DNA from: Ostreococcus lucimarinus
Lineage: Eukaryota
Reading direction: 5' to 3' (one strand)
DNA length: 64,000 nucleotides
Assembly (NCBI GenBank): GCA_000092065.1
Contig: CP000581.1
The notes beneath the pieces are model-generated. The model was not told the DNA's origin. It searched no databases and saw only the letters and a list, made by a program, of their open reading frames with translations. Below, piece by piece: positions 470 through 27,786 of the stretch (positions within the stretch are counted from its first letter, which is position 1; each line of letters begins with the position of its first letter). A program made the translations under genes and the position numbers.

Positions 470-2354
470 ATGTCCGCCGCCGTTAAGGTGCGCGATCGAC
501 GCGCGAGACGACGCGATCGGACGACGACGGCGCGATCGCGACGTCGCGACGTCGCGACGCGCGGTCGCGACGTCGGCGACGGCGCGATGACGGACGCGGG
601 ACGAGCGATCGCGGATAATCATCTCATCGACGCCATCGGCGACGACGATCGGGGACCGCGGGCGTCGAGCGCGGACGCGCGCGCGCGCGAGGACGCGAGG
701 GACTGACGGAAAGAATTTTGTGCGTCGCGATCGCAGACCGTCGAACTCACCGCCCGCACCGCGCTCGCGGGTAACTTCCGCAAGGCGACCGCGCCGCGCG
801 CGGCCGCGAAGGTGCGTGACCGCGCGGAACTCGGCGCGCGCGCGACGCGCGAGCGCGCGCGACGTCGACGGGGGTGCGCGGAGACTGACGAATGGGGTGT
901 TTGCGCGTCTAGGCCAACGTGAACGTGGTGACCGAGGCGAAGGTTAAGGTTGCCATCAACGGTTTCGGCCGCATCGGTGCGTGCGATCGCGGATAAGGGT
1001 CGCGATGCGATTGTCGCGATGTCGATGCGTTTCGCGCGTCGTGTGCGCGGTGTTCGCGCGATGTGAGGCGAACGAGGGCGCGCGGTGATTGGGAGAATAT
1101 GCGCGCAGCGCTCGTGCGTCGAGGGAGGGCGCGCGCGAGGCGCGCGAGGCGCGCGAGGGTGCGATCGACGCCGGGGTGCGCGCACGTGGCACCCTGGGGA
1201 TTTTTATGACTTTTAGCTCGCGCGCGTGGGCACGACTCGAACGACGCGACTGACGATGAAATGAACGCTTGTGGGCGATTTAAAACACAGGCCGCAACTT
1301 CGTGCGATGCTGGAAGAGCCGTGGCCCGGACTGCCCGCTCCAAGTCGTGTGCGTGAACCAATCCGGCGGCGCCAAGCCGGCGGCGCACTTGCTCAAGTAC
1401 GACTCCATCTTGGGTACGTTCAAGTCTGACGTCAAGGTTGTCGACGACGCCACGATCTCCGTCGATGGTGACATCATCAAGGTTGTGTCCGATCGCGACC
1501 CGCTCAACTTGCCGTGGAAGGAAATGGGCATCGACATCGTCATCGAAGGTACGGGCGTCTTCCTCGACGGCCCGGGCGCGGGCAAGCACATCCAAGCCGG
1601 CGCCAAGAAGGTTGTTATCACCGCCCCGGCCAAGGGCTCCGACATCCCGACCTACGTCGTCGGTGTGAACGCCGACCAATACGACAACTCTGCCAACATT
1701 GTCTCCAACGCGTCGTGCACCACCAACTGCTTGGCGCCGTTCGCCAAGGTGATCGACGACAAGTTCGGCATCGTCAAGGGTACGATGACCACCACGCACT
1801 CTTACACTGGTGATCAACGCATCTTGGATGCGTCCCACCGTGACTTGCGCCGTGCTCGTGCCGCCGCCTTGAACATCGTGCCGACCTCCACCGGTGCCGC
1901 CAAGGCTGTTGCGCTCGTCTTGCCGCAACTCAAGGGTAAGCTCAACGGTATCGCGCTTCGCGTGCCGACGCCGAACGTGTCCGTCGTCGACCTCGTCGTC
2001 AACGTTGAGAAGAAGGGCGTCACCGCTGAAGAAGTCAACGCCGCGTTCAAGGAAGCGCAAGATGGCCCGATGAAGGGTGTTCTTGCGATCACCGATGTCC
2101 CGCTCGTGTCTGTCGATTTCCGGTGCACCGACGTGTCCACCACCATTGACGCGGCTCTCACCATGGTGATGGGCGATGACATGGTCAAGGTTGTCGCGTG
2201 GTATGACAACGAATGGGGTTACACCCAACGCGTCGTCGACCTCTCCCTCATCGTCGCCAACGGCCTCATCAACGAAGGTGTTGCCTCCGCCGACCCGATG
2301 GACCAACTCTGCGCGGATGATCCCTCGGCGGACGAATGCAAGGTGTTCGATTAA
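470..2354 (+). CDS. GAPB: Plastid GapA/B-type glyceraldehyde-3-phosphate dehydrogenase (NADP-dependent), GapB-like with CP12-like C-terminal extension; inferred 4 exons
   Basis: Main exon 1291-2354 encodes ..[72 protein letters not shown].., nearly identical to plant GapA/B. The tail ..[20 protein letters not shown] is a two-Cys CP12-like extension. Exon 913-976 (..[14 protein letters not shown]) joins via intron 977-1290 (donor gtgcgt, branch actgac, acceptor cag). Upstream exons are inferred from the intron grammar: 470-487 (MSAAVK) and 737-811 (..[11 protein letters not shown]), giving a short transit peptide. The main exon is certain; the 5' exons are moderate confidence. Confidence 0.8.
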
Positions 2355-2692
2355 ACCATTTTTTCGATCAACTTCATCGAGCGATGTTGGCGAGTGGACG
2401 AGGCGTGAGACGTAATTATTACGTCGTTGCGCCCTTGATTTCTCGCGCGATTTACCAGCGTATTAACACACACTTCTGTAATCAGAATCTAGAGACAGAT
2501 TTGAAAGAACCGCGTTCGCCTCGACGTAATTTTTCCGTCTCGACTCGAAAGCGCTGTACTTAACGTGGCGTCCTGCAAAGTTGCATTACAAATATATTGA
2601 ATCAATGACCTGTCGTCGATGAAAGAATATCACGAAATGAAGACGAGCGCGCGTCTCGATTGTCGTGTGCGCGTGCGAGAGGATGGGGATGG

Positions 2693-3715
2693 TCACAGGA
2701 TTGGATTTTCGCCCGAGAAGGACATTTGAGCGGTTATGGCGCTCAGCTTTTGGGTGAGCAGATAGTTGGCCATCTGTACGCCTTCTGCGCTACCCGAGAT
2801 GACGACTTTTCGATTGCGCGTGCCTTCGAAGAAGTCGTCGCGGTCACTGACTTTGATGCGGCACCCGCTCGCGACTTGAACCTCGGCAATGGTGCGGCCG
2901 CCGCGACCGAGCACGGCGCCGATGAGCGAGTCGGGGATGGTGACGAGGATGGAAGTCTCGTCATCCCTCCCACCGCCCTGACCGGCGCCATAACGTCGTG
3001 GCGTGGCGCGATTAAATTCGCCGCTTCTCCGTCCGCCTCCACCACCTTGCAACGAAAGCGGCGATTGCACGCTGTACGTACTCTGTCGATGCACGAGGGT
3101 GGCGTACGCGGGATCTTCGCACAGCGTCGTCGCCACGAGAGCCACCGCTCGTAAAACGCAATCAATCGTTCCAGTGATCGTCAGCGTGCGATCATTACAC
3201 CCGGGAAGCATCCGATCTTGATTACTCAGCTTAATGTCCGCCTGCGAATCCTCCACAAAGCTTCGTATCTTCGATCCGCCCTTCCCGATGATGCACCCGC
3301 ACGAGCTGTTGGGCACCACCAGCGCCACCTGAGGCTGTCCCATGCGATCGATGCCCTCGCCGTCCGCCACCAGCTTCGTGATGATCAAGTGCAACACCTG
3401 CAATATCGCGCTCAGATCCCCGCTCACGATCACCACGCGATCATTCGTCCCCGGAAACACCTCGCGATTCCTCGACAACTGAATGCGCGCCCCCGTGAGC
3501 GCCTGAAACTCGTTGATCGTCGCCCCTCCCTTCCCGATCACGCTCCCCGCCGCGCTCGGCGAGATCAAAAACTTGAGCGTGAACGATCCATCGTCGATCG
3601 GCGCCGCGCTCTCCCCGCCGTCGTCGCTCGCGTCACCGCCCGCGTCGTCCGCGTCGCGCGCCGCGTTCCCATCGTCGCCGCGCGCGTCGCGCGCGCCGTC
3701 GTCGTTCGACGACAT
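2693..3715 (-). CDS. Triple-KH-domain RNA-binding protein (PCBP/hnRNP-K/Nova-like)
   Basis: Three type-I KH cores with GXXG loops: SVIGKGGATINEFQ, CIIGKGGSKIRSFVE and GAVLGRGGRTIAEVQ. Start taken at ATG 3715 (MSSNDDGARD..). The longer ORF to 4042 would overlap the neighbouring gene and is R-rich. Confidence 0.7.
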   Translation of the reverse strand: MSSNDDGARDARGDDGNAARDADDAGGDASDDGGESAAPIDDGSFTLKFLISPSAAGSVIGKGGATINEFQALTGARIQLSRNREVFPGTNDRVVIVSGDLSAILQVLHLIITKLVADGEGIDRMGQPQVALVVPNSSCGCIIGKGGSKIRSFVEDSQADIKLSNQDRMLPGCNDRTLTITGTIDCVLRAVALVATTLCEDPAYATLVHRQSTYSVQSPLSLQGGGGGRRSGEFNRATPRRYGAGQGGGRDDETSILVTIPDSLIGAVLGRGGRTIAEVQVASGCRIKVSDRDDFFEGTRNRKVVISGSAEGVQMANYLLTQKLSAITAQMSFSGENPIL

Positions 3716-3995
3716 CCGCCGCGCGCGCGACGCCGCGACGCCGCGACGCCGCGGTCCGACCGTCCGACCGTCCGACCGTCCGGTCGCGCGGTCGCGCGGT
3801 CGCTCGGTCGCGCGTCGTCGACGCGTCGCCGTGTCGCGCGCGCGCGCCGACGTGCTGACGCGACGCTGACGCGGACGCGCCGCGGGCGATCCGCACGCGG
3901 GTCTCATCACATGGGCCCGAACGCGCGTTAAACGCGGGGAAATCTTCGTAAAGGAGTGCGGGTGACATAACAAGTTGGAGTGATCAAAGCATCGT

Positions 3996-5516
3996 CTAGT
4001 CCAAAGCGAGCACGGTGATATCCGAGCAATCGCGGCCGTCATCCGCGAGGACGCACTCGAATCGAGCCAACATCGTCTTCATTTTACTCCTCGTGATGCT
4101 CGCGGGCGTGAGTTTCTTGAGTCTTTCCTGGTCGCCGAGACTCGCCCCGCGTTCTTCTTTCATCTTCTCCCAGTCCTCGGCGGAACGAATTCCAACACAC
4201 AACTCTTCGGAGTTATACTTCGCGAGGCATTCTAAACGAGCTTCAATCATTATCATACCAGGCGACTTGCCTAAGCCACAGTCGCAGTGCAGCGTCGTCC
4301 AGGATCGCATGTGACGCAAGACTTCTGGGCTCCCGAAATCCCAAGTCTCGCCCGGGAGCTTGTTGACATCGGCACACCCTGAACCGTAGTCATCGTATGA
4401 CAGTGCGAACGCATGCGCTTCGCCTTTCATACTGAGTTCGTTGATGGCCTGCGCTACACGTTCTTGTTCCATCGGGTGAGGACCGTAATTCAAAGCGAGC
4501 CGCTGGATTTTCAGCGTCGTCGGCGACGCGCGCCAGAAGACTTGGCCCGAGTTGAAATTCCAAGCGTCTTGATGGTGTTGTTTAGCGTTCTCATTCTTTT
4601 GCATATATGGGTAGCGTCCACGGTACAGCGCGTTATATCCGATCCAGTCTTGTTGATAAAACACATTTGTGCGCGGATGTTCGCGGACTAAACGCCCCAA
4701 GTCTGGGACTTTAAAAAGGAGAACATCCGTGTCGAAGATGAAAAAGTCCACATTCGCGGCGAGCAATCCGAGAGTGACTTTTTGTTTGAACCAAGTCAGC
4801 TGTTTGTATTTGAGGTCGTCGGCGTGCCCGCCCGAGTGCACCAAGCCGTCGAACGCGTGCCCGTCGGCGTATTGCAAGCAGTGAAACAGCTTCTCGCTTT
4901 CGCACTTCCTCGTCGCGTCGGCGTCCAGCGTGATCAAAATGTACCGCTCAATGAAGCACGTTTGATTCACAACGCGCTGCGTCGATAATTTGGCGGTCTC
5001 ATAGTTTTCCGAATCCGCGATGGAGACAAAGAGCGTGTTCGCCGGCGCGCACGACGACGGCGTCTTCGCGCGCTGCTGCGCAAACGGGTGCAACTGTTTA
5101 TACCACGAGCAATCCCTCGGCGTGATCTTGTGTTCGGTCTCGTGTGCCCTGTCATCGTCTCCGTTCATCGCGTTCGGGTAGTCGCTCGTCATCGCCGGCA
5201 GGCACGACAAGTTGCCGCCGACGCGCTCGAAGTCGTAAAAGTCGCCGCCGAGCGTGGCGGCGTCCCCTTCCAAATCCATCGCGTCCGCCTTCGCCGAGCG
5301 CGCGCGCGCGCCGAGCGGTTGGACGGACGCATCGCGCGCGGAGTTGACGCTCGAGACGATCGCCGCCCCGACGAGGAGCGCGCACGCCGAGCCGACCGCG
5401 AGCGTCGTCTTCAGGCTCAGGCTCGAGCGTCGACTTTGGTGTTGCGCGCGATCCGTCGCGGTCAACGACGCCGGCGCGTCGACCAAGGGCGCGGACTCCT
5501 CGAGCGAGCCCGACAT
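3996..5516 (-). CDS. Type-II membrane glycosyltransferase, Nucleotid_trans (PF03407/GT77-like) family, copy 1
   Basis: 506 aa, real ATG at 5516. N-terminal hydrophobic anchor (LAVGSACALLVGAAIVSSV). DxD-type motif ANVDFFIFDTDVLLFKVPDLG and downstream NFNSGQVFWRASP, typical of nucleotide-diphospho-sugar transferases. Confidence 0.7.
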   Translation of the reverse strand: MSGSLEESAPLVDAPASLTATDRAQHQSRRSSLSLKTTLAVGSACALLVGAAIVSSVNSARDASVQPLGARARSAKADAMDLEGDAATLGGDFYDFERVGGNLSCLPAMTSDYPNAMNGDDDRAHETEHKITPRDCSWYKQLHPFAQQRAKTPSSCAPANTLFVSIADSENYETAKLSTQRVVNQTCFIERYILITLDADATRKCESEKLFHCLQYADGHAFDGLVHSGGHADDLKYKQLTWFKQKVTLGLLAANVDFFIFDTDVLLFKVPDLGRLVREHPRTNVFYQQDWIGYNALYRGRYPYMQKNENAKQHHQDAWNFNSGQVFWRASPTTLKIQRLALNYGPHPMEQERVAQAINELSMKGEAHAFALSYDDYGSGCADVNKLPGETWDFGSPEVLRHMRSWTTLHCDCGLGKSPGMIMIEARLECLAKYNSEELCVGIRSAEDWEKMKEERGASLGDQERLKKLTPASITRSKMKTMLARFECVLADDGRDCSDITVLALD

Positions 5517-5860
5517 GGTGATCTCTTGGATATCCTTGGATCTCTTGACTTAGAGTCGACGGACGAGCGAGCGATGTGCCGAACTGTGCCGCTCGCTCGC
5601 GGAGGGTGTTCAGACGGAGTGCTCGTCGAAGCGGTTCGCGAAGCAAACAGCCGCGTCGGCGGAAACGAACGAGCGAAGTCACCGCTCAGCTCGAGACACG
5701 CCTGGATCTGACGATATTAAACATGGACACAGGCTTAGCCGAGGCGAGAGGCGTAGCTCGAGCGTCTAGACCTCGGCGACGATCGCTTTCGCCACCGCCG
5801 CGCTCGGAGGCGCTTTCCCGGTGCGGGTGACATAACAAGTTGGAGTGATCAAATCATCGT

Positions 5861-7381
5861 CTAGTCCAAAGCGAGCACGGTGATATCCGAGCAATCGCGG
5901 CCGTCATCCGCGAGGACGCACTCGAATCGAGCTAACATCGTCTTCATTTTACTCCTCGTGATGCTTGCAGGCGTGAGTTTCTTGAGTCTTTCCTGGTCGC
6001 CGAGACTCGCCCCGCGTTCTTCTTTCATCTTCTCCCAGTCCTCGGCGGAACGAATTCCAACACACAACTCTTCGGAGTTATACTTCGCGAGGCATTCTAA
6101 ACGAGCTTCAATCATTATCATACCAGGCGACTTGCCTAAGCCACAGTCGCAGTGCAGCGTCGTCCAGGATCGCATGTGACGCAAGACTTCTGGGCTCCCG
6201 AAATCCCAAGTCTCGCCCGGGAGCTTGTTGACATCGGCACACCCTGAACCGTAGTCATCGTATGACAGTGCGAACGCATGCGCTTCGCCTTTCATACTGA
6301 GTTCGTTGATGGCCTGCGCTACACGTTCTTGTTCCATCGGGTGAGGACCGTAATTCAAAGCGAGCCGCTGGATTTTCAGCGTCGTCGGCGACGCGCGCCA
6401 GAAGACTTGGCCCGAGTTGAAATTCCAAGCGTCTTGATGGTGTTGTTTAGCGTACTCATTCTTTTGCATATATGGGTAGCGTCCACGGTACAGCGCGTTA
6501 TATCCCACCTGGCCTTGTTGATAAAACACATTTGTGTGCGGATGTTTGCGGAGTAAAAGCCCCAAGTCTGGGACTTTAAAAAGGAGAACATCCGTGTCGA
6601 AGATGAAAAAGTCCACATTCGCGGCGAGCAAACCGAGAGTGACTTTTTGTTTGAACCAAGTCAGCTGTTTGTATTTGAGGTCGTCGGCGTGCCCGCCCGA
6701 GTGCACCAAGCCGTCGAACGCGTGCCCGTCGGCGTATTGCAAGCAGTGAAACAGCTTCTCGCTTTCGCACTTCCTCGTCGCGTCGGCGTCCAGCGTGATC
6801 AAAATGTACCGCTCAATGAAGCACTTTTGATTCACAACGCGCTGCGTCGATAATTTGGCGATGTCATAGTTTTCCGAATCCGCGATGGAGACAAAGAGCG
6901 TGTTCGCCGGCGCGCACGACGACGGCGTCTTCGCGCGCTGCTGCGCAAACGGGTGCAACTGTTTATACCACGAGCAATCCCTCGGCGTGATCTTGTGTTC
7001 GGTCTCGTGTGCCCTGTCATCGTCTCCGTTCATCGCGTTCGGGTAGTCGCTCGTCATCGCCGGCAGGCACGACAAGTTGCCGCCGACGCGCTCGAAGTCG
7101 TAAAAGTCGCCGCCGAGCGTGGCGGCGTCCCCTTCCAAATCCATCGCGTCCGCCTTCGCCGAGCGCGCGCGCGCGCCGAGCGGTTGGACGGACGCATCGC
7201 GCGCGGAGTTGACGCTCGAGACGATCGCCGCCCCGACGAGGAGCGCGCACGCCGAGCCGACCGCGAGCGTCGTCTTCAGGCTCAGGCTCGAGCGTCGACT
7301 TTGGTGTTGCGCGCGATCCGTCGCGGTCAACGACGCCGGCGCGTCGACCAAGGGCGCGGACTCCTCGAGCGAGCCTGACAT
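5861..7381 (-). CDS. Type-II membrane glycosyltransferase, Nucleotid_trans family, copy 2 (tandem paralogue)
   Basis: 506 aa, real ATG at 7381. Roughly 98% identical to copy 1 (differences include ETAKLSTQRVVNQT->DIAKLSTQRVVNQK, GRLVREHPRT->GLLLRKHPHT, DWIGYN->GQVGYN, NENAKQ->NEYAKQ). Confidence 0.7.
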   Translation of the reverse strand: MSGSLEESAPLVDAPASLTATDRAQHQSRRSSLSLKTTLAVGSACALLVGAAIVSSVNSARDASVQPLGARARSAKADAMDLEGDAATLGGDFYDFERVGGNLSCLPAMTSDYPNAMNGDDDRAHETEHKITPRDCSWYKQLHPFAQQRAKTPSSCAPANTLFVSIADSENYDIAKLSTQRVVNQKCFIERYILITLDADATRKCESEKLFHCLQYADGHAFDGLVHSGGHADDLKYKQLTWFKQKVTLGLLAANVDFFIFDTDVLLFKVPDLGLLLRKHPHTNVFYQQGQVGYNALYRGRYPYMQKNEYAKQHHQDAWNFNSGQVFWRASPTTLKIQRLALNYGPHPMEQERVAQAINELSMKGEAHAFALSYDDYGSGCADVNKLPGETWDFGSPEVLRHMRSWTTLHCDCGLGKSPGMIMIEARLECLAKYNSEELCVGIRSAEDWEKMKEERGASLGDQERLKKLTPASITRSKMKTMLARFECVLADDGRDCSDITVLALD

Positions 7382-7715
7382 GGTGATCTCTTGGATATCC
7401 TTGGATCTCTTGACTTAGGGTCGACGGACGAGCGAGCGATGTGCCGAACTGTGCCGCTCGCTCGCGGAGGGTGTTCAGACGGAGTGCTCGTCGAAGCGGT
7501 TCGCGAAGCAAACAGCTGCGTCGGCGGAAACGAACGAGCGAAGTCACCGCTCAGCTCGAGACACGCCTGGATCTGACGATATACGCAACGCTATCGCGCG
7601 ATCGCCCGCCCGGCTCGACCCGTCGTCGCGCGGCGCCAACGTGTGCGGCGGCGATGAAACCACGCGCGAGCGCGGCGCGCGCGCGAGAGCGGCGCGCGCG
7701 GCGCGCGCGCGGGCG

Positions 7716-8387
7716 ATGAAGCGACCCGGGATCGCGCGCGCGGACGCGCGCGACGCGCCGTCGACGTCGTCGGACGCGATCGACGCGCGCGCGGCGAAAA
7801 AGGCGCGCGCGAACGCCGCGGGTGGACTGCTCGCGAGCATCCTCGGCGACGTGAAGCGATCGAACGCGCAGCGCGCGAAGACGGTCGTCGCGAGCGGCGG
7901 ACGCGCGATCACGAGGGATGACGTCGTGTCTCGGGAGACGAAAGCGATGGAGGCGCGAAGGAAGTTTGAGAGGGAGGTGCGGGAGAGGATCGAGCGAGAG
8001 GTGGCGGGGAGCGAGAGCGCGGAGGCGTTTTGCGAGTTTGAGACGATGGAGAAGCAGTGGAGGAACATCGTGCACGAAATCGCGGCGGAGATGAAGTTGT
8101 TTTCGGAGAGCGTGGAGGTAGGGGCGACGGGGGAGGAGAAGTTTGTGATTGTGCATAAGAAGGCGCCGGAGGTGGAGCGAGACGCGGAGTCGTTGCGAAA
8201 CGAAATCGCGGCGAGAGAGCGGGCGGGAAAACACGGTAAAAAGGGAGAGGGGTTGAGCGATAAAGCGCCGACGTACGCGGCAGATGCGGTTGAGTTGACA
8301 GTTGTGGGTACGGTGAAGCGAGACTTGCGGTCGGTGGAGGAAACGATTGCGGATATGCGCAAAGCTCGCGAGAAGACGGACGCTTGA
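7716..8387 (+). CDS. Hypothetical protein (K/E/R-rich, coiled-coil-like)
   Basis: First real ATG at 7716 (MKRPGIARAD..); the track's start at 7641 is GTG. Mixed, coding-like composition (..EKQWRNIVHEIAAEMKLFSESVEVGATGEEKFVIVHKKAPEVERD..). The antisense ORFs here are R/P/S-rich noise. No family recognised. Confidence 0.5.
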   Translation: MKRPGIARADARDAPSTSSDAIDARAAKKARANAAGGLLASILGDVKRSNAQRAKTVVASGGRAITRDDVVSRETKAMEARRKFEREVRERIEREVAGSESAEAFCEFETMEKQWRNIVHEIAAEMKLFSESVEVGATGEEKFVIVHKKAPEVERDAESLRNEIAARERAGKHGKKGEGLSDKAPTYAADAVELTVVGTVKRDLRSVEETIADMRKAREKTDA

Positions 8388-8433
8388 GTCGAGACCCTTC
8401 TAATAACAAATCGCTACGACGTATTAGGCTTAT

Positions 8434-11400
8434 TTACAGCTCATCTTTCACGTCTTCTGTTTTATCGCCGACGCGCATGCGTTCTTCGACTCGTTCGGTG
8501 AACGCGCGAACCTCCGCGTCCAAACCTGGCCACTCTTGAACGATGCGTCGCGCGCCTTCAAGTTTTGGCTCCTTCGTGAGCGGGTTGTTACACAAATCGA
8601 TCGTCTTCGCCGCAGATTTGGTCTCATTCCCACACCACGATTCGCACCACAGCCAGGGCTGCGGTAACGAAAAGATTGGCACGTCGTGCTGCGCGTAGTT
8701 TGGCAAGTCTTGATCGAGGTTCGCCAACGAACCCGGATCTCGCGAAAGTTGGTCGTACATAACTCTCAATCTATCGCCAGCCGCCATAGCGCGAAAACGA
8801 TCGAGATCCACGACGTACAGCGCACTAATATGGTACGGCCTACCTCGTAAGTGATCTCGCCAGAAGCCCTGTTTCCAAAATCTAAAGCCTTCCATTTCTT
8901 TGTTGTTGTCGCACATCGGCGTGTACCCGTACGGCGCACCGTGAAGATCCATGGTCCAAAGTTCGCTCATATCCGCTCGAACAATTTGATCGGCATCGAC
9001 AAAAATAACTTTGTTGAGCTCGAGTGGGAACAGTACGTCGAGGAACAGAATCTTATACGCCCAGATGATTCTTTGCTTCTCCGTTTGCTTGTTCAGCCAC
9101 GTCGGCCACTTGTAGCTCACGAGCTCATACTCAAAGTCGTACTCCTTTGCCATGTACGGTAAGAAATCTTTAAAGGACGGCGAAAGCCAGTTTTTGATGA
9201 ACCAGAATTTCACCGGATTCTTCGTCGAGCGCTTGACGGATGCCATCATAATTTTCAAGAATCGCTCGTACAGATGACCGGAGGCAACGCTAAAGATGTG
9301 AATACGGTCTGCCTCCTTCGTCCTCTTGAATACACTCGACAACCATCCACTATTGTCTGAGGTTGAAACTTCGTCGAGTACGTCAAGATCTTCCTTACCT
9401 TTCCGTCTCGCAAGAGATACGTCAAGTTGCCGCCCTCTGAAAGAGTCCACTAATACGTCGACGGTGGATTCGTCGTGCGAAAGCGTCAAGTCTCGCGCCT
9501 CCGAGTCGAGAAGATCTTTCACCTGAAGAAATGCGAATATGTCCGACGATCTACCAGCTCGAAGTGACAACTTGTGCATTCCAGGTGAGGCTGGAAGCTG
9601 AAAATAACCCAAGTTCGACATCACGATTGTGCCTGGATTCACGGCCACGCTCTTATCCTCGAGCACGAACTGTGTCCCTCTCGCCGGTTGACCCGTGTTG
9701 TGATCACTTGCGTGGCCAGTGACTAGCAGAGACTCGAGCAAGTACTCTGCGTGCACAGTCTTCTCCTTGATGTCTTTGAGAATCAGGTTATCCAAATCAT
9801 ATGCCGCCCTGTGAGTCGTCACCATCCACGCTTCTGGGAAATCTACGTGCATCGTGAGCGTCTTGTGGGTCGGAACATTGGTGATGAATGCACGAGGTGA
9901 TTCCGTCATCGACGACGGTGGCGCAACATAGCGGTAGTACGACTTCAACGGTAAATCCTGCAAATTCGTCATGGGATTAAGGACGACTCGAATGGTCACC
10001 GCTTCTGGCAATCGGTCTCGAAGTAGCGCGAGCACCGGCGCGACGCGTTGCGCCTCCTTACTCAAAGGATCGAGAATGGCCTCAATCTGAACGATAGTTC
10101 CGGAGCCAGTGACAAAACTTGTTGCTTTCGCGTCGTTAATGATTTCCTCCAAACTTTCCACCGTTCGCTTCGTGGATGCGCCGGCTTGTTTCATCGCAAC
10201 AATTGCTGCGGCGTCTGAGATGATGGTCGACAACAAAGCCGGTTCCATCTCCTCGGCGTCTGAGAGGATTTCTTCTTTCACCACGTCGAATACCATTTTA
10301 GATGTTTTTGTCATCTCGATGGCGGCGAGAACGTCCAGGTCTTCGGCATCCATTTGACATTGTCTGGCCATCAGATCCAGGACCCTTCCATTCGCAATAA
10401 CGGCGCACTTCGATGTCAAGTCGTAATGAGCCAGTAGTCGAAGACTTTGCGTCGCGACGTCGGCAAAAATCGTCTCGTCGCTATACAGTCGCTTAAAATC
10501 GACCAAATTCAGCCCCATTCGCTCCGCCGCATCCTCGGGCTTCACATCTTCTGCCAAGAGTTGCTCAACGAAATTGGCAATCTTAGCCCGTCGCGTAGGC
10601 AGATGCAACGCGGCTTGAATCGCGCGCGAGCGCGCTCCCATCGTCGCAGCTGCCGATGGATGAACTACTGTAAATCGCGAAAGCGAACCAGATTCGGACA
10701 ACACGTGCTTTGCAGCCGCCAGGATCAAAAGTGCGCCCCTATCACTGTCAGCGTTGGCTACGACGACGATGGACATACCTTTCACTTCGTCTGCATCGCC
10801 GCCTTGAGCGTACTTGAGCGAAGCGATTGACGAACGGTCGATGGGTAATCGATACACCGGTGCGACATCATCCTCATCCAATATCCAAGGAACATACTTA
10901 GAAACCGCTCCTTCTTGCATGAACTTCGCCACATTTTCGAGCAGGGCGCCGGCAAGTTTTCCCGCAACAACGAGTCTTCGAACTTTCTCCATCTCCTGGC
11001 GCAAGTGGTGCGATACCATTTGCTCCAACGATGCGCGATACGCCATACCTTGCGATTCATCGACGTACACACCGTTCAATACGAACGACTGTGTCATCAA
11101 GCCTTTCGCCTTCACGGCGGCGCGGACTTCGTCGATGTACTTGTCGATGCTCGTTGACGAACGAGATGCGAACTCTTCGAGCAACGTCACCGCATCAAAT
11201 TCGAGATCATCGGCAAATTCTGACAGTGTTTTCTCGAACGCATCCATCGCACCTTCCCAAGACGGCGGAGAATATACCGCGGGCGCGAAGTACGACGGTG
11301 GTCTTTCTTCCGTACGACTTTGCGCTACGTAAGACATGAAATTGTGCTGTGCGACAGGCCCATATTCGCGCAATAAGTAATTTGCGGCACGTGCAACGCG

Positions 11401-13071
11401 ACGTCCGAAAACTAGGTCCGTTTGCTTCGCAAACGTCTGAGCGAGGACGGGATCAGGGTTATCTAACCCTGTGACGACGACTTGAGCCATTCGCACCGGT
11501 ACTTTGTGATCGTAGAAATGGGACATCATCCCAACCATATCCCACGTCGACATGTCTGACGGATCCAGGAAAACGGCCATATTGTAGAGATTGTACCTCA
11601 CTTTCGGAAATCCGCCTCGCGAAGGTTCGAGCAACGTTTTCAAATTCCTAGTCCACGAAGCGAACTTCGCGTCGGCCTCGATGTCGTTGTAAAACAGGAT
11701 TGCCGGGTTCGTCACGTCAATCTTGACCTCAGAGCTTCGCTGCTTTTTGGGCAAGCGAAGAAGCCTTGAAACGCTCGATTGCGGCAACCCAAGACGACGA
11801 AGCGCAGCGGCGTGCTGTACCTCCTTTGATATGGTCTCCGTCAAGGTGTAGATGTCGATGGTGTCGAGTTCTAAATTCTCGCCGTTGAGCGACATGATCA
11901 ACCCTCCGGGACGCATGTTTTTGCGATTTTTCGTCACTTCATTAACGATTGTCGAATTCAGTTTCATGCGAGACAATGAGTTCGCTAAAGAAGGGAAATT
12001 TTGCGAGAGCTCGACCAGGGCTCGGAGAGGATCGTCGGAGAGCGAGATGCGCTGCGTCGCCTGCAAGCCTAAATCCTTGATATCCCACAATTTCAGAGGC
12101 GCATCCGAGGTCAGCTCCGACTTTCCAACCATCGCGTCGCGAAATGCGCGTAGACCATCGACTTCGTTCGGATATCTCTTTGCTAATGTAGCGAAATTAA
12201 ATCCCGACACGCTCTCGTCTGCGAGCTCGTCGCCGAGCGGCGCCGACGCGTCGTCGTCCGCATCAGCCTCTTCGGCCTTGACCTTGCTATCATCAATCGC
12301 CTTGTACTCCATATTTTTCACCGCGAGCTCGACACCGAATCCGGCCAGGCGCAAGTTGGCGTCGTCAGACGCCCCGAACGCAGCGCACGAATCTCTTCTC
12401 GCGCACGCCGTCTCGAACAGTACCGGTCTTAAAACGTAGTTCACCAGACCGGACTCGCTCGCATCGACTAAAACGCGGTGCATCGAGTTAAAACACGCCG
12501 TCCCGGGCGCGGCGTACGCGAAAGCCGTCGGCAACGTCGCATTGAGCGCACCGCCGTACGTCGCGTCGCGTTCCGTCGCGCTCCCGCTCGCGCTCGCCGC
12601 GCCCGCGCGCACCGCCCCCTCCAGCGCCCCCGTGTCGTCATACACCGCCCCCCCCAACTCCACGCGACAGCATCCACCGCTCGCATCGCTCAGCGCCGCC
12701 GCCATCGTCCGAAAACTCGCCAGTCTCGGCGAGTACGCTCGCGCGCCGCGCGCCAATCCCAACGCCCGCGCGCGTCCATCGTCCCCGAGCGCCCGTCGTC
12801 CCGCCTCGTCCACGCGCGCCTCGCACGTCGCGTCATCGCTCGCGTCGCCATCGATCGGCGCGTCCAGATCGTCGACGAGCGTCCAGAACGCCGCGCCATC
12901 GACGTCCGCGACGCCGACCAGCGTTTCCAACGCGAACGACGTCGCGCGCCATCCCGCGCGCAGCGCGACGTCGATCGATTTCGCGCCCGCCGCGCCGCGC
13001 GCGAGCGCGCACGCGACGAGCAGCGACGCGATCGCGCGGCGCGCGCGCGCGCGCGGCGTCTCGACGCGCAT
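8434..13071 (-). CDS. UGGT: UDP-glucose:glycoprotein glucosyltransferase (ER folding sensor)
   Basis: 1545-aa single ORF with a signal-peptide-like N-terminus. C-terminal GT8/GT24 catalytic domain (..[75 protein letters not shown]..) and a terminal ..VKDEL ER-retention signal. Real ATG at 13071. Confidence 0.9.
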   Translation of the reverse strand: [1545 protein letters not shown]

Positions 13072-13163
13072 CGCCGCGCGGATGAGTGACGCGCCGGCGC
13101 GCGCGGCGTCATCTCTCGACGCGCGACGCGTCGCGCGGACGCGCGCGCGCGCGACGCGACGCG

Positions 13164-13733
13164 ATGGTGCTCGGCGTGTCCACGACGACGCTCGTGCTCG
13201 CGATCGGCGCCGGCGCGCTGGCGCTCGGGCCGAGAGACGTCCCGGTGGCGGCGAAATTCTTGGGAAGACTCACGGGACGCGCGGTGGCGCACGTCGGCGG
13301 CGTCGCGCGCGCGATCGAGCGCGCGACGAACGAGCGGGAGCTGCGAGGGATACGCGCGGAGGTGCGAGCGTCGATGAAGGACCTGCGAGGGGTGGCGCGG
13401 GAGATCGAGCGGGAGTTGACGCCGTCGGGACGGCGCGGCGAGGACGAGGGCGAGGGCGAACGCGAGGGCGGGACGAGCGCGACGGCGACGACGGCGACGT
13501 CGAGGGACGATTCGAGGACGTCGACGTCGGCGAGATACGAACGGGTGATTCCGGTGAGCGCGCGCGCGGTCGGGGCGACGCCGGCGAGCGGCGGGTTCGG
13601 CGTCGCCGGTTCCGAAGTGCTCGCGGCGAGTTTTAAAGAGCGCGAGGTCGCGCTCAAGGCGGCGCGGTTGATGGAGAGCGGCGCGATCGATGACTATTTA
13701 GCGAAGCGCGAGCGCGAGGGGGGCACCGAGTAG
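13164..13733 (+). CDS. TatB/Hcf106-like twin-arginine translocase subunit, no N-terminal presequence
   Basis: First real ATG at 13164; the track's 13086 is GTG. MVLGVSTTTLVLAIGAGALALGPRDVPVAAKFLGRLTGRAVAHV.. has the TatB pattern: TM helix, GP hinge, amphipathic helix (compare E. coli TatB [37 protein letters not shown]). The rest is an acidic/basic tail. Confidence 0.45.
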   Translation: MVLGVSTTTLVLAIGAGALALGPRDVPVAAKFLGRLTGRAVAHVGGVARAIERATNERELRGIRAEVRASMKDLRGVAREIERELTPSGRRGEDEGEGEREGGTSATATTATSRDDSRTSTSARYERVIPVSARAVGATPASGGFGVAGSEVLAASFKEREVALKAARLMESGAIDDYLAKREREGGTE

Positions 13734-13838
13734 AGACGCGGACGAAGCGCGCTGCGGTAGTAGGGACTTAGACGAATAGCAAAGAAACGGTGTGGTAAAA
13801 ACATACTTGCCAGTATCAACGAAAATCAACTCCGCGCT

Positions 13839-14579
13839 CTAAAGCTTGTCGAGAATGTGCTCGGTGACTTGCTTGCGAGTGTCCTCGGGCGACGTCACGG
13901 TGTGCCCGATCGTCTTCGGAGACTCGAAAATCTCGTGGTCGTTACCGCCCGGGTACGTCTTGTCGCCGAAGAAGTGAATGACGTCGAAGTCGTTCTCCAC
14001 GAATTGCAAGCAGTACGTCTTATCCCATCCCTGCGGGAACACGTCGAACGAAATCTGTCCCCCGATGGAGTACGTCAGCCCGTAATCCGCGAATTCTTTG
14101 CGCAGAGTCTCCACCATCGCCTTGCGCACGCCCGCCTTTTCGTCAAAGCGCTCGAACTCGTCCCGCTCCTCCTGACTGCAATTTCTCCCGATCGGCGACA
14201 CGTTCAGCATCCCCGCCCTGAACTCGATGAACGTCCCCCGCTTCACCGGGACGTCCAAATCCGCCACGTAGTGCAGCACAAAGTTAATAAACCGCTTCAA
14301 CTTGTCCTCGCCCAGAAACGCCTTGAGCGACTGCTTCGCCAGGAGCGCGCCATCCTTGTACGCCACCAGCCCGTTCTCCGAGAACAAGTACGCGTACTCC
14401 CGCTCCACGCCCTCGCCGAGCTGTTCGGAGATCTTCACCAGATCCGACCCGCCCACGATCCCGACCGTCACCCTCGACCGCAGATCCTCCATGAAGCGCT
14501 TCATGACGTCGTCCGCCTCCTTTCGCGGCACCGTCAGCGTGCCGTCGACGTCGAACAGCGCGAGCACGCGCGGCGACAT
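13839..14579 (-). CDS. PMM: Phosphomannomutase (HAD superfamily)
   Basis: 246 aa from real ATG at 14579: [20 protein letters not shown].. (DVDGT HAD motif) ..[36 protein letters not shown]... Upstream of 14579 the long ORF is microsatellite-encoded R/A noise. Confidence 0.9.
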
Positions 14580-14599
14580 GTCGCGGTGCGTTCGCGCGT

Positions 14600-14990
14600 T
14601 CGCCGTATCTCTCGCTCGCTCGCGTCGCGTCGCGTCGCGTCGCGTCGCGTCGCGTCCACGTGTGCGGCGCGCGGACGGCCGCACCGCACACCGCACGCCG
14701 CACGCCGTCGTCGTCGTCGTCGCCGATCGGTCGCCCGCGCGTCGGTCGGTCGGTCGGTCGGTCGGTTTCGTTTCCGTCGCGCGCGCGTCGTCGTCGCGGC
14801 CGCCGGACCGCCGGACCGCCGGACCGCCGGACCGCCGGTCCGCCGGTCGCGCGCGCGGTCGCGTCGGCATCTTGCGCGCCACCGCGCGCGCGTCGACGCG
14901 CGGCGCCTCGGCGAGGTCCCGCGCGCGACGCGGACGCGCGCGCGTCGTCGACGCGCGTCCGACGCGCGCCGTCGCGCCGTCGCGCCGTCG
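14600..14990. repeat. Cluster of GC-rich microsatellites in the PMM/enolase bidirectional promoter
   Basis: (gcgtc)x7 at about 14621-14656, (gtcg)x6 at about 14741-14766, (cgccggac)x4+(cgccggtc)x2 at about 14801-14848, and (gtcgcgcc)n near 14960-14990. Confidence 0.8.
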
Positions 14991-15154
14991 CGCGCGTCGT
15001 CGCCGTCGCCGTCGCGCGCGGCGTCGCCGTCGGCGACCGACCGCGCGTGGTCCGACCGACCGCGCGGATAAGCCGGAAAAACCCACCGACCGAGGGTCGC
15101 GACTCGATCGAGACCCCCTCGGGGTGACGACGTATGCGCGCCAGTGCGAACGCA

Positions 15155-15164
15155 TATATACCTC
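15155..15164 (+). promoter_or_regulatory. TATA-like element upstream of enolase
   Basis: catatatacc sits in otherwise about 75% GC sequence, roughly 140 bp upstream of the enolase ATG at 15299. It argues against the upstream in-frame ATG at 15134 being the start. Confidence 0.3.
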
Positions 15165-15298
15165 CCGCGCGCGCCCCACACGGGCGAAACGCGCGCGCAG
15201 TACGCCCCCGCGCGCCGCGGTCGCGCGCGGCGCGTGAGGGCTTGCGCCGGCGCGCCGTCGCGGCGCCCGACGCCGCACACGACGACGCGACGCGCGCG

Positions 15299-17137
15299 AT
15301 GAGCGTTCAGGAGTACATCGAGAAGCACGATCTCACGAAGAAGATCGAGGAGGCGCTCAACGCCGCGGTCAAGGCCAAGGCGGATGAGCCGCTCGCGTTC
15401 GTGGTGCGCGCGACGCGACGCGATTGACGCGCGAACGCGATGGATGCGCGCGACCGCGGCGCGACGTCGAGGGCGAAGGGCGACGCGCGCGAAGGCGCGC
15501 GAAGGCGCGCGAGCGATGCGTTCGATGGCGTGGAAAACGTGCGGGCGAATGGGACGGGACGCGGGATCGGTGCGAGCGCGCGCGCGCGGGGGGGGGGTCG
15601 TTACGATCGCGGGAGGCGATCGGGTGTCTGGATAAAAGCGCGCGGCGCGCGCGGGCGATCGCGCTCGCGGAGGGGTGGGCGGGGCGAACGCCGTCGCCGT
15701 TCGGGATCGGGCGTGGAGGATTCGGGCGCGAAGATGCGTCGCGCGGCGACGCGGCGCGACGAAAAGACGATTGACTGACGATTCGACGAATGCTTACGAC
15801 GCGCGCAGAGCGAGTACATGAAAAAGCGCACGACGCCCGCCATCACGAAGGTCGTCGGTCGCCAAATTTTTGACTCTCGCGGTAACCCGACGGTTGAAGC
15901 CGATGTGTACACGCACAAGGGTATGTTCCGCGCCATGGTGCCGAGTGGTGCGTCCACGGGTATCTACGAAGCCGTGGAACTTCGCGACGGCGGCAAGGAA
16001 TACATGGGCAAGGGCGTCATGCAAGCCGTGAAGAACTTGAACGAAATCATCGCCCCGGCGCTCATCGGCAAGGACCCGCGCGACCAAAAGGCGATCGATG
16101 ATTTCATGTGCAAAGATCTCGACGGTACGGACAACAAGGGCAAGCTCGGCGCCAACGCCGTGCTCGCGGTTTCCATGGCCGTCGCCAAGGCTGGCGCCGC
16201 CGAGAAGGACGTGCCGCTCTACCAACACATCGCCGACCTCGCCGGTAACGGCAAGTTGGTGCTCCCGGTGCCGGCGTTCAACGTCATCAACGGTGGTTCC
16301 CACGCTGGTAACAAGCTCGCCATGCAAGAGTTCATGATCTTGCCGGTCGGGGCTTCCTCCTTCAAGGAGGCGATGCAAATGGGCTCCGAAGTCTACCACA
16401 ACTTGAAGTCGGTCATCAAGAAGAAGTACGGCCAAGATGCGTGCAACGTCGGTGACGAAGGTGGCTTCGCCCCGAACATTCAAGACAACAAGGAAGGTCT
16501 CGACCTCCTCGTTGAAGCGATCGAAAAGGCTGGCTACACCGGTAAGATGAAGATCGGTATGGACGTCGCCGCGTCTGAATTCTTGACCGAAGACAAGTGC
16601 TACGATCTCGACTTCAAGACCGAAGGCAACGACGGTTCCATGAAGAAGACTGGTGCCGAGATGATCGACTTGTACCAAGAGTTCATCAGCGAGTACCCGA
16701 TGATCTCCATCGAGGATCCGTTCGACCAAGACGACGCTGAAAACACCGCCGCGCTCACGGCGAAGAACAACTGCCAAATCGTCGGCGACGACTTGTTGGT
16801 GACCAACCCGAAGCGCGTGCAAGCCGCCATCGACGGCAAGTGGTGCAACGCCCTCTTGCTCAAGGTGAACCAAATCGGCACCATCTCCGAGTCCATCGAG
16901 GCCGTCGGCATGTCCAAGAAGGCTGGCTGGGGTGTCATGGCTTCCCACCGCTCCGGCGAAACCGAAGATTCCTTCATCGCCGATCTCGCCGTGGGCTTGT
17001 CCACCGGTCAAATCAAGACGGGCGCCCCGTGCCGCTCCGAGCGTTTGGCCAAGTACAACCAGCTCTTGCGCATCGAAGAAGAACTCGGTGACAAGGCTGT
17101 CTACGCCGGCGCGTCGTACAAGCACATTGCTTGGTAA
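15299..17137 (+). CDS. ENO: Enolase with a 35-aa N-terminal Dpy-30/RIIa-like extension (2 exons)
   Basis: Exon 2 (15809-17137) is a canonical enolase (..[41 protein letters not shown]..). Exon 1 (15299-15403, [35 protein letters not shown]) ends at a gtgcgc donor. Intron 15404-15808 has actgac 29 nt before acceptor gcgcgcag. The junction is in phase and gives ..LAFV|[15 protein letters not shown]... Confidence 0.85.
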
Positions 17138-18471: not shown

Positions 18472-20606
18472 ATGTCGCGCGCGCGCGCGCGCGACGACGC
18501 GCGCGCTGTCGACGTCGCCCTCGCGTCGCGCGCGCGCCTTCGCGCGGGCCTGTACAACGCGTCGAACACGTGTTACCTGAACGCCATCCTCCAGGCGCGT
18601 CCGCGCGCGCGATCGCTCGCCGCGCGATGGCGCTCGCGCGGCCGCTCGGCGACGACGGCGACGACGACGACGACGACGCGCGACGCGAGCGACGACTGAC
18701 GACGACGACGCGCGCGCAGGCGCTGCGACACGTGCGCGCGTTTCGAGAATATCTGCTCGGCGACGAGGCGGCGGCGTTTTTATCGGCGCGCGCGACGCGA
18801 GGACGCGCGCGCGCGCGGTCGTTCGACGCCGGCGATGAGGTGCTGACGTTCGACGCGTCGCTGAAACGGAAGCGACGGACGGAGGGACGGTCGGGACGAG
18901 GGACGAGCGAATCGACGGCGAGCGAGGGCGACGCGGGACGAGACGACGCGGGGACGACGAGCGCGAGCGAGCGGGGAGGGGCGAAGAGGAGGTTCGCGAT
19001 GCGACCGCCGGCGATGACGCGAGAGAGGCGGGCGGATATGGCGAGCGCGGAAACGCTGGACGTGGGGGCGGAGATGCGGTGCGTGATGCGGACGCTGATG
19101 GATGGAGAGTACGAGGCGTTTCCGCCGCACGATTTGTTGCGAAGCGTGTGGAGGCTCGTGCCGTCGTTCGCGGGGAACGAACAGCAGGACGCGCACGAGT
19201 TCATGCGGTTCTTGTTGGATAGGTTGAGAAAGGAGTTGAGTAGTGGGAAACACGCGGTGAAAATGCGAGGGACGCTGACGCCGCGGCGGAAGGAACACTC
19301 GCCGTGCGAAAACGGCATTCCGAATCCTCCAACGCGAGCGAGAAGCGTGAGAAGCCGCAGCGGAAGATCGAGCCCGAGCCCGAGCTTTTTGAGAAACGAC
19401 GACGACGACGACGACGACGAGACGAAAAGTAGCGGCGCTGCACGCGGCTCGTCGCCGGTGAATGGGCTGTTGTCGAACGAAGATAGGCGAGTGGACGACG
19501 GCGACGAAGACGGAGGATACATCATCATGTCTCGTTGGGGGCCGAAGAGACACGACAAGGGTTGTATTTGCCGTCCTTGCAAGGCGCAGGCGAAGAAGGA
19601 AGCGCAAGAAGGGGTGCGCTGCGAAAAGTCCAAGACTACCACCGCCGATGCGAGCACGCATTTGAGTTCGCCTTCGAGCACGTTTGCGTCGCCGTCGCGG
19701 CTGTCGCGCGGGGTCACGGCGAGCGAGGTGAAGAGGCAACTCGAGGAGTCGCTTAAGGGATCTCAAACGAACGGATTGAAGGGTGGATTGTCACCCACGT
19801 CGCCGAAGACACCACAGGGGAAATGTGAACAAGATGACGGCGTGACGGGTGATAAAATCATGGAAATCTTCGGCGGCGTTGCGGTGACGACGGTGACGTG
19901 CATGAAGTGCGAGCGATCAAGCGAACGTCGAGAACCATTCATGGATCTTTCGCTTCCCATCCCTCCTGTCGTCGGGAAAAACGGCTCCGTGCCGTCGACC
20001 CCGGTTTCACCTTCGGTGGAGATCGAAGAAGGCGAAGGTCCTAACGGAGAGGCCACCCTGCAGCAATGTCTCGCGGCGTTTGTGCGCAACGAAACCCTCA
20101 GCGGACACGGGCGATACTTTTGCGACGGATGCGGTAAAGTTCAGAGTGCGACGAAATCTACGCGGATCGCCAAGCTCCCGCCTGTTCTGTGCTTGCACTT
20201 GAAACGTTTCACGTGGAAAGGTCACGCGATGCGCACCAAGCTCACGCACGACGTGGACTTCCCTTTGGATGATTTAGACTTAGCTCCTTACTGCGAGACC
20301 AACGGCGAAGCGGTGCAAAAACCTGAAAAGGTGCCGGCTTCGACGGGAAAGTCTCGTCGCACACCGAGGAAGAGCGCCATCCCCCCTGCGCAGGTTATGC
20401 GCAGCGATAAGATGTATGATCTCGTGGCTGTCGTCACGCATCACGGTTTGAACGCCGGTAGTGGGCACTACACCGCTTGCGCGCGAGAGTTCACCGCTGA
20501 AGGAAACAGCGACTGGCAGCACTTCAACGACGATGATGTCAACTCACTCACCGCGGAAGAAGTTCGAACGGGTCAGGGATATATCTTTTTATACGCGCGT
20601 AAGTAA
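18472..20606 (+). CDS. Ubiquitin carboxyl-terminal hydrolase (USP/UBP, peptidase C19), 2 exons with a GC-AG intron
   Basis: Cys box GLYNASNTCYLNAILQ ends exon 1 (18472-18594), in a different frame from the main ORF. Removing 18595-18719 (donor gcgcgt, branch actgac, acceptor gcgcgcag) gives ..LNAILQALRHVRAFREYLL... Downstream are ..EQQDAHEFMRFLLDRL.. and the His box YDLVAVVTHHGLNAGSGHYTACARE..GYIFLYARK. Confidence 0.8.
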
Positions 20607-20713
20607 GAATAGCACGATTTGCTTTGCTGTTATATCGAAACGACATTCATTGAAATTGCGATTTCCCGCGACGCGTGTCAAGGTTAAGTTTGATTACAAC
20701 AAGTACCGCGCTT

Positions 20714-22879: not shown

Positions 22880-22939
22880 CGCGCGCGAGTCTGACGCCGG
22901 CGGACGCGACCGACAGGCTGGCGCCACATCTCGTCGCCG

Positions 22940-27682: not shown

Positions 27683-27786
27683 CTCAACTTGGACTTTGGC
27701 GAATAATAGGGTGATTATTAATACCGAAAACTCTTTCGTTCGCTTCGCTATCGCTACTGCGCGTACTTCATATTACGTGTCGGTTA

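Follow-up and report, generated by a model that had tools for sequence, protein, structure and literature searches.

The DNA analyzed here is a stretch of 64,000 nucleotides (nt) from the green alga Ostreococcus lucimarinus, referred to below as the window; exact matches of two of its proteins to XP_001415783.1 and XP_001415786.1, on a contig of 1,152,508 bp, identify it as part of chromosome 1 of strain CCE9901. Between the genes for a KH-domain protein and an R3H-domain protein, the window carries two nearly identical, head-to-tail genes for glycosyltransferases of the GT77 type, and the structure, history, and possible function of this pair are the subject of this work (Table 1). An ungapped comparison of the window with itself at an offset of 1865 bp delimits two direct repeats of 1762 bp, which are 98.8% identical, with 21 mismatches and no insertions or deletions (indels), and whose identity drops to a random level at both borders. 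The repeats are parted by 103 bp of unique sequence, for which homology to either outer flank was sought and none was found. An earlier annotation made from the letters of the window (here called the sequence-only reading) had described two units of about 1865 bp with roughly 98% identity. The duplication stands, and its anatomy is revised to two 1762-bp repeats around a spacer, that is, a repeat-spacer-repeat layout of about 1.94 units of an 1865-bp period and not two full units. Each repeat comprises 201 bp of 5' sequence, an open reading frame (ORF) of 1521 bp, and 40 bp of 3' sequence; the homology of the two head-to-tail copies thus extends past the coding sequence (CDS), as in a segmental duplication. 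The two ORFs encode 506 amino acids each and differ at 18 nt and 11 amino acid positions, among them the changes DWIGYN/GQVGYN and GRLVREHPRT/GLLLRKHPHT. No further GT77 copies or fragments were found elsewhere in the 64-kb window, and a search for structured RNA in the spacer and the repeat gave no Rfam match at an E value of ≤1 and fold z-scores of only -1.1 (spacer) and -0.65.

Table 1. Coordinates of the GT77 gene pair, its subregions, and its neighbors in the window
Feature	Position	Strand	Evidence or remark
Repeat copy R_D, downstream copy adjoining the KH gene	3956..5717	-	Ungapped identity of 98.8% to 5821-7582
GT77-type glycosyltransferase, D copy, 506 amino acids	3996..5516	-	PF03407, E = 2.8e-13; GT-A fold in structure model
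Spacer, 103 bp	5718..5820	-	No outer-flank homology; homologue at L025 2440-2541
Repeat copy R_U, upstream copy adjoining the R3H gene	5821..7582	-	Repeat comparison
GT77-type glycosyltransferase, U copy, 506 amino acids	5861..7381	-	Identical to XP_001415783.1
Divergent core of D copy, CDS nt 519-928, codons 173-310	4589..4998	-	
Divergent core of U copy, CDS nt 519-928	6454..6863	-	
CTTCGC in R_D, repeat positions 75-80	5638..5643	-	Junction point of the permuted unit of the sister lineage
CTTCGC in R_U, repeat positions 75-80	7503..7508	-	
KH-domain protein gene, 340-amino-acid model; downstream flank of the insertion	2693..3715	-	Pfam KH_1; ATG checked
R3H-domain protein gene, divergent from the U copy; upstream flank of the insertion	7641..8387	+	Pfam R3H
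UGGT (UDP-glucose:glycoprotein glucosyltransferase), old synteny block	8434..13071	-	Pfam; synteny in L038 and L039
Phosphomannomutase (PMM), XP_001415786.1, same old synteny block as UGGT	13839..14579	-	Pfam; synteny in L038 and L039

Both copies match the Pfam family PF03407 (Nucleotid_trans) over residues 188 to 377, with scores of 50.8 and 50.0 bits against a cutoff of 22 (E values of about 3-5e-13). The DxD motif is D262-T-D264, and all of the 33 relatives compared have D262, D264, Q288, and G324. The sole hydrophobic segment, residues 35 to 59 (Kyte-Doolittle maximum of 2.16), follows an N-terminal tail of 34 residues, and 12 cysteines lie C-terminal to this transmembrane segment. A first structure model, based on 12 sequences, was unusable (predicted local distance difference test [pLDDT] score of 48.7), and an AlphaFold model based on an alignment of 33 sequences reached a mean pLDDT of 79.8, with values of >90 in the catalytic core; it comprises a transmembrane helix (residues 36 to 59), a disordered stem (residues 58 to 90), and a GT-A core. 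When this model was compared with the PDB by using Foldseek, the matches were XXYLT1, glycogenin, LgtC, the catalytic domain of UGGT, and LARGE1, all enzymes of the retaining GT8 clan (E values of 4e-7 to 1e-5), and no PDB relative was found at the sequence level. These data support the assignment of each copy as a type II, DxD-containing, GT77-type glycosyltransferase, much as the sequence-only reading had proposed. The structural neighbors suggest a retaining catalytic mechanism, and the topology would be that of a Golgi enzyme. A HMMER scan of 1.84 billion representatives gave 52 matches at an E value of ≤1e-3 and 13 at an E value of ≤1e-30, and the close family matches all lie on contigs of a marine or estuarine picoeukaryote type. 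The pair thus belongs to a narrow, divergent branch of the Nucleotid_trans/GT77 family that is restricted to picoalgae.

Three observations on annotation may be added here. The distant homologues of the family include partial NCBI entries named "putative nucleotide-diphospho-sugar transferase" and labeled Pseudomonas aeruginosa and Escherichia coli (cluster P0097), which lie on contigs of 531 to 1109 bp and look like eukaryotic or environmental contamination of bacterial assemblies. The NCBI protein match, XP_001415783.1, is to the upstream copy alone, and the exact protein of the downstream copy matched metagenome contigs only; the deposited annotation may hold a different gene model for this copy or none. 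Finally, the ORF of the KH gene can be extended (2693-4042, minus strand) to an ATG at 4042 that lies inside the repeat and overlaps the 3' end of the downstream GT77 copy, and gene callers switch between models of 445/449 and 340 amino acids. The start at 3715, which gives 340 amino acids, is the more plausible one.

The differences between the two repeats are clustered and mostly nonsynonymous, as had been noted from the sequence. Fourteen of the 21 fall within 410 nt (CDS nt 519 to 928; scan permutation P = 0.0006), and identical tracts of 512 and 484 bp flank this core on either side. All 11 amino acid differences lie within codons 173 to 310, mostly in a loop at codons 270 to 320, and at CDS nt 869 to 876 five of eight adjacent bases differ between the copies. 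We refer to the downstream core type as alpha (R275, V277, E279, R282, D290, W291, I292, and N310 in the D copy) and to the upstream type as beta (L275, L277, K279, H282, G290, Q291, V292, and Y310 in the U copy). Outgroup proteins place the ancestral state with alpha at V277, D290, W291, and I292, where beta is derived; at T174 and R275, it is alpha that is derived. The W291Q change in beta affects a position that is conserved in the subfamily, being W in all members except the most distant group, which has Y. The loop is located between the DxD and FNSGQ motifs and is the stretch that varies most within the family, in both length and sequence; the least conserved 100-bp window of the CDS relative to that of the sister lineage, nt 874 to 974 (residues 292 to 325; 71%), falls here. 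The order of the motifs and the analogy with the GT8 clan make it probable that the loop is close to the acceptor side of the active site.

The sequence-only reading had left room for a collapsed or expanded array and for alleles joined by mistake. Some observations could be taken that way, as a single copy is present in some metagenome contigs (L009, L015, and L032 to L037) and short-read contigs of about 2 kb end at the repeat borders. However, the gene order UGGT-R3H-GT77-GT77-KH-GAPDH recurs in contigs from many independent samples, and the junction of repeat end, spacer, and repeat start, found with different assemblers and in many independent data sets, is crossed by the short contigs L001, L003, L005, and L031 and is also present in at least nine metagenome scaffolds and in the independent 1.13-Mb contig L016. 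The latter represents a different strain, with 68 differences from the window over 15 kb, and it separates two distinct copies, arranged as in the window: of the 14 sites in the core, 12 agree between its upstream copy and the upstream (beta) copy of the window and 13 between its downstream copy and the downstream (alpha) copy. The spacer is, moreover, kept as genuine sequence in the sister lineage described below. An expansion of a single gene in the reference, or a misjoining of alleles or strains, is in our view next to impossible and was ruled out on the basis of the independent contigs. Scaffolds L006 to L014 show two identical copies, probably because one edge of the assembly graph was traversed twice, and were not used as evidence of either homogenization or divergence. 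A search of the literature for this gene pair, including tandem duplications in O. lucimarinus, returned no relevant paper.

The pair is not "very recent," as it had been called. Synonymous (dS) and nonsynonymous (dN) divergence was estimated from Nei-Gojobori counts, and the samples are small for every dN/dS statement in this work. Flanking genes are 99.8 to 100% identical between strains; for UGGT, R3H, KH, and GAPDH in the window and in wild contigs, dS is 0.0034 (6/1779) and dN is 0.0009 (5/5670). The two copies in the window, in comparison, have a dS of 0.016 (5.5/339.5) and a dN of 0.0107. The dS of the paralogues is thus about 5 times that of the flanks (Fisher P = 0.006 to 0.02) and the dN 12 times (P = 2e-6), and the duplication is therefore older than the coalescence of the sampled strains. 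In keeping with this, the pair is neither strain specific nor younger than the standing diversity, occurring in L016 as well as in numerous wild contigs; this second strain has the same copy-specific cores, and the pair is also found in a divergent haplotype of 504 amino acids.

The near identity of the repeats outside the core seems to reflect exchange between the copies. The base at nt 1329 is T in both copies of the window and C in both copies of L016; a block at nt 1413, 1416, and 1449 (CGG or TAA) is found in different copies in different genomes; and protein haplotypes from the wild combine alpha and beta states in mosaic fashion. We read these shared and swapped variants as signatures of gene conversion between the copies, and variants shared within strains, exchange between positions, and uneven divergence along the repeat are together what is expected of concerted evolution. 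The tandem pair of a second species, which encodes 499 and 501 amino acids with 96% nucleotide identity, displays this pattern even more sharply, with a dS of 0 to 0.011 in codons 1 to 269 and of 0.09 to 0.33 downstream.

Two pairs of copies from outside the window can be described in more detail. In L021 to L023 (for example, L021 8188-11506), this tandem pair of the second species, an Ostreococcus-like lineage, sits between the genes for MnmE and DnaJ/Sec63; its first approximately 290 codons are nearly identical, and divergence sets in abruptly from about codon 294. In the 504-amino-acid haplotype of L018 (9207-10965 versus 7348-9103), most differences between the copies fall at the very 3' end (nt 1469, 1514, 1528, 1548, and 1558), and in three cases (nt 1514, 1528, and 1548) the upstream copy has the state of the sister-species outgroup.

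A very recent and essentially neutral tandem duplication, in which new mutations accumulate and one copy drifts toward loss under relaxed selection, would account for the overall identity of 98.8%, for a whole-gene dN/dS ratio (ω) of 0.65 that is not different from 1, for the loss of the subfamily-conserved W291 in the beta copy, for the existence of a single-copy allele, and for a paralogue dS of 0.016 that is far below the species-level dS of 0.2 to 0.28. It does not account for the second strain having the same alpha and beta cores at the same positions, for the wide occurrence of both core types in wild haplotypes, including the divergent 504-amino-acid clade, or for a paralogue dS in excess of that between strains in the flanks. 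Nor are the clustering of the differences and the five changes in eight adjacent bases expected from independent neutral point mutations. Together with the lack of nonsynonymous change outside the core and of any disrupted ORF, detailed next, this makes such a duplication improbable.

Relaxed selection on a whole copy, one of the two modes of selection that the sequence-only reading had considered, does not fit the distribution of changes. All 12.5 nonsynonymous changes between the window copies fall in codons 173 to 310 (ω of 2.3; Fisher P = 0.32), and outside these codons there are no nonsynonymous and four synonymous changes (P = 0.0026). The ORF is intact in every haplotype. Taken together, these two observations indicate that both copies are under purifying constraint outside the core, which speaks against pseudogenization. 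Within the loop (codons 270 to 320), ω is 4.9 between the copies, on 10 changes; in comparisons with the sister lineage it is 1.3 to 1.4, and at greater depth it falls to 0.3.

Between strains, the nonsynonymous divergence of GT77 is 14 to 26 times that of the flanks (P = 2e-8 to 1e-16), and the ratio of nonsynonymous to synonymous changes is 27:5 or 15:3 in GT77 versus 5:6 in the flanks (P = 0.02 to 0.05). This excess is suggestive of diversifying selection, and gene conversion together with a relaxation of constraint on a loop at the protein surface would explain it just as well; positive selection cannot be demonstrated and, when tested by Nei-Gojobori counts, was not significant. One may go further and propose that the loop is under diversifying or balancing selection and that copies and haplotypes are kept for different surface glycans, such as those to which prasinoviruses attach. 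The divergence figures for GT77 and its loop point in this direction, as does the fact that the loop is a hotspot of divergence also between the paralogues of the second species and between species, and the locus is polymorphic in copy number and rich in mosaic haplotypes. In Ostreococcus tauri, moreover, expression of glycosyltransferases is tied to prasinovirus resistance, though these are genes of chromosome 19 (PMC5082852). On the other hand, no single dN/dS test of this proposal is significant (P = 0.32 for the core), an ω near 1 is just as well explained by relaxed constraint on a loop at the protein surface, gene conversion between paralogues inflates apparent polymorphism, and metagenome haplotypes can be chimeric. 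The differentially regulated glycosyltransferases implicated in resistance in O. tauri are located on chromosomes 19 and 2 and not on chromosome 1, and GT77 is unmentioned in that study (PMC5082852). A viral homologue was not found either: a pattern scan of IMG/VR gave no prasinovirus homologue, and the fold matches in BFVD were generic GT-A proteins of giant viruses and phages. We therefore regard selection of this kind as possible but doubtful.

The position of the pair in the genome was assessed by comparison with two other Ostreococcus lineages (L038 and L039), in which the R3H gene is 69 to 71% identical. Both have the order GAPDH-KH-R3H-UGGT-191-amino-acid ORF-PMM-enolase-RING, and in neither is there a gene between KH and R3H, so that GT77 is absent from this site. 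The 3627 bp at 3956-7582, which hold the pair, are thus an insertion specific to the O. lucimarinus lineage, and its link to UGGT and PMM is coincidental. The sequence-only reading had correctly recognized UGGT and PMM, both confirmed by Pfam, as neighbors of the pair and had seen in this an unusual concentration of glycan-pathway functions. Could the genes form a functional, coregulated glycosylation cluster? Two GT77 genes, UGGT, and PMM do lie within 11 kb, and genes for starch synthase, enolase, and GAPDH are nearby. However, the UGGT-PMM block is conserved without GT77 in both other lineages and is an old synteny unrelated to it; the nearest GT77 homologues occur in four different contexts elsewhere; the genes are on different strands and are parted by unrelated ones (R3H and a 189-amino-acid ORF). 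UGGT acts in quality control in the endoplasmic reticulum, and PMM makes a general mannose precursor. A coregulated cluster is thus very unlikely, and the apparent grouping of glycosylation genes should not be overinterpreted. It may be noted separately that GAPDH (1302-2354, plus strand), PMM, and enolase (15818-17137, plus strand) lie within 16 kb in an order that is kept in L038 and L039; this conserved sugar-metabolism block also holds unrelated KH, R3H, RING, and UCH genes.

The closest homologues of the pair are found in four other contexts in four lineages: as a tandem pair between MnmE and DnaJ/Sec63, as a single gene beside a sulfotransferase, as a single gene near a galactokinase, and, in the sister lineage (82% amino acid identity), as a single gene between HAD-like and channel-like genes. 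No two of the five lineages compared hence have the GT77 gene at the same locus, and in at least two of them it is a tandem pair. The sister lineage is informative as to how the gene may have moved. The spacer of the window is the native 3' flank of the gene, being 94% identical to the sequence that follows the single gene there (L025 2440-2541). In four independent contigs of this lineage (L025 and L040 to L042), the locus consists of a flank, CTTCGC-GAACC and the remainder of repeat positions 75 to 1762, the homologue of the spacer, repeat positions 1 to 80 ending in GTTTG-CTTCGC, and the other flank. It reads as a single unit of 1865 bp that is a circular permutation of the one in the window and has CTTCGC at both ends. 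For a unit to become permuted in this way, it must pass through a tandem array or through a circular or rolling-circle state, and relocation would therefore have involved a circular or concatemeric intermediate; the 1.94 units of the window would need an array of at least three units or a concatemer. The permuted unit and its 6-bp microhomology constitute sequence evidence for circular or concatemeric gene relocation in a green alga.

The number of copies varies in nature. Per-run contigs from six sequencing runs (L032 to L037) have a single copy of 504 amino acids between R3H and KH and no spacer, with junctions exactly as in the window pair and flanks that are 99.6 to 100% identical to the window. 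The core of this copy is a hybrid (G290, W291, and V292). A single-copy haplotype is thus present in wild populations of this picoalga, which is abundant worldwide. Most simply, it is a product of recombination (pop-out) of the pair, because the spacer is native 3' sequence, which a lone repeat could not regenerate. By the reverse path, a circle of repeat plus spacer integrating into a resident repeat would give the pair.

Taken together, we favor, with a probability of about 70%, the view that the locus is an inserted, copy-number-polymorphic pair of cassettes that is homogenized by gene conversion except in its core, that moved via a circular or concatemeric intermediate, and whose adjacency to UGGT and PMM is coincidental. 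The insertion into the KH-R3H intergenic region consists of two head-to-tail cassettes, in each of which the CDS is preceded by about 200 bp of promoter/5' region and followed by 40 bp of 3' sequence, that are parted by the native 3' flank and that would have reached this site through an intermediate of the 1865-bp unit. The predicted product is a DxD-dependent, retaining GT-A glycosyltransferase with an N-terminal signal anchor and a lumenal catalytic domain. Gene conversion would keep most of the 1762-bp repeat about 99.5% identical, and a core of about 410 bp, encoding a helix and the loop between DxD and FNSGQ, would escape and stay copy specific, ancestral-like (alpha) downstream and derived, with W291Q, (beta) upstream. 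Purifying selection would keep both copies intact outside this core, and pop-out recombination would generate the single-copy allele of wild populations. The likeliest functional outcome, as judged from the sequences, would be two isoenzymes with slightly different acceptor or donor preferences or an effect of dosage. Should acceptor specificity depend on the loop, the locus would be a candidate for determining the diversity of cell surface glycans and, possibly, recognition by viruses or grazers, in a genus that is genetically tractable.

Several points weigh against this view. Statements on the donor, the acceptor, Golgi localization, and the expression of the individual copies are inferred, and the placement of the loop at the acceptor side comes from motif order and analogy and not from measured distances. 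The samples behind the dN/dS statements are, as mentioned, small, and, since the two copies are identical in most metagenome scaffolds, copy-specific sequence is truly resolved only in the reference genome and L016. Were there no gene conversion, a dS of 0.016 would make the duplication fairly young relative to the species split (dS of 0.2 to 0.28). In principle, collapse during assembly could account for the single-copy contigs, against which speaks that they are unitig-based and were assembled separately for each of the six runs. Finally, relocation may have proceeded either from a locus like that of the sister lineage to O. lucimarinus or in the reverse direction. It is also conceivable, if improbable, that the cassette is a self-contained "hopping" host gene that moves as a small circle and enters new sites via CTTCGC microhomology or homologous recombination with a resident copy, giving rise to alleles with one and two copies, with its hypervariable acceptor-side loop and its copy number being held polymorphic by frequency-dependent selection by prasinoviruses that would recognize the glycan made by the enzyme. 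If true, this would make it a chromosome 1 counterpart of the immunity genes of the outlier chromosome.

Some features of the window outside the pair were also recorded. Its GC content is markedly uneven: that of UGGT is about 52%, and neighboring genes and intergenic DNA at 12001-16000 reach 67 to 70%. Blocks of low GC content are found at 8001-12000, 20001-22000, 26001-28000, 42001-44000, 52001-54000, 58001-60000, and 62001-64000, and several of them coincide with very long ORFs, such as those of UGGT and a starch synthase. The latter (20714-23893, minus strand) is a starch-synthase-like protein of 1059 amino acids with Glyco_transf_5 and Glycos_transf_1 domains and a SAP domain at residues 404 to 438, and this combination of SAP and starch synthase domains is unusual. 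Differences between strains pile up at 1-1000 (25 to 114 per 500 bp) and, in the region of the KH gene, at 2501-3000 (up to 108, in L007); both peaks are probably due to indels or low-complexity repeats.

How does the pair compare with known enzymes and systems? The characterized members of GT77 include the RGXT xylosyltransferases of plants, the extensin arabinosyltransferases RRA, XEG113, and ExAD, and AgtA of Dictyostelium. With this family (PF03407), the O. lucimarinus proteins share a significant Pfam match over the DxD core, type II topology, and a GT-A fold that is nearest to the retaining GT8 clan. They differ in forming a narrow branch with about 20 to 25% identity to the next groups, in about 90 additional amino acids at the C terminus, which form a conserved, Cys-rich region, and in the length and variability of the loop that joins DxD to FNSGQ. 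Clades of RRA and XEG113 have been described in algae (PMC3797821). GT8-clan enzymes provide the best structural matches and likewise have a DxD motif followed by a motif of the xNxGx type, which is FNSGQ in this pair; identity to them is just 11 to 17%, TM-scores are 0.25 to 0.35 on the query, and the O. lucimarinus proteins have about 30 extra residues between the two motifs.

As genes, the two copies resemble tandem paralogues that evolve in concert, and gene-converted duplicates with a region that escapes homogenization are known among globin, opsin, and MHC-linked genes. Common to these and to the O. lucimarinus pair are near-identical flanks around a sharply more divergent core, strain variants found in both copies, mosaic wild haplotypes, and polymorphism between one and two copies. 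The O. lucimarinus pair is distinguished in that it is itself a relocated cassette, in that the escaping region encodes the loop of an enzyme, and in that no test of selection is significant. Relocation or amplification of genes via circular DNA or tandem arrays is known from yeast and from herbicide resistance amplicons of plants. The likeness to relocation by extrachromosomal circular DNA or tandem arrays lies in an 1865-bp unit that is permuted between two lineages and has 6-bp CTTCGC ends, and the repeat-spacer-repeat layout fits either a circle of repeat plus spacer that entered a resident repeat or a concatemer of 1.94 units. The unit is, however, very small, holding one gene, and for O. 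lucimarinus the steps and their direction would have to be read from present-day sequence.

A further parallel is the small outlier chromosome of Mamiellales, rich in glycosyltransferases and associated with "viral immunity," which in O. tauri is chromosome 19 (PMC5082852); the likeness lies in a glycosyltransferase locus with duplication, structural polymorphism, and a lineage-specific location. In contrast, the O. lucimarinus pair lies on chromosome 1, in ordinary conserved synteny and at normal GC content, and its glycosyltransferase family differs from those named for O. tauri. Each of the phenomena that meet at this locus is thus already known, and it is their combination, with sequence evidence for the intermediate, that makes the GT77 pair of O. 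lucimarinus a good new example and not a new kind of system.

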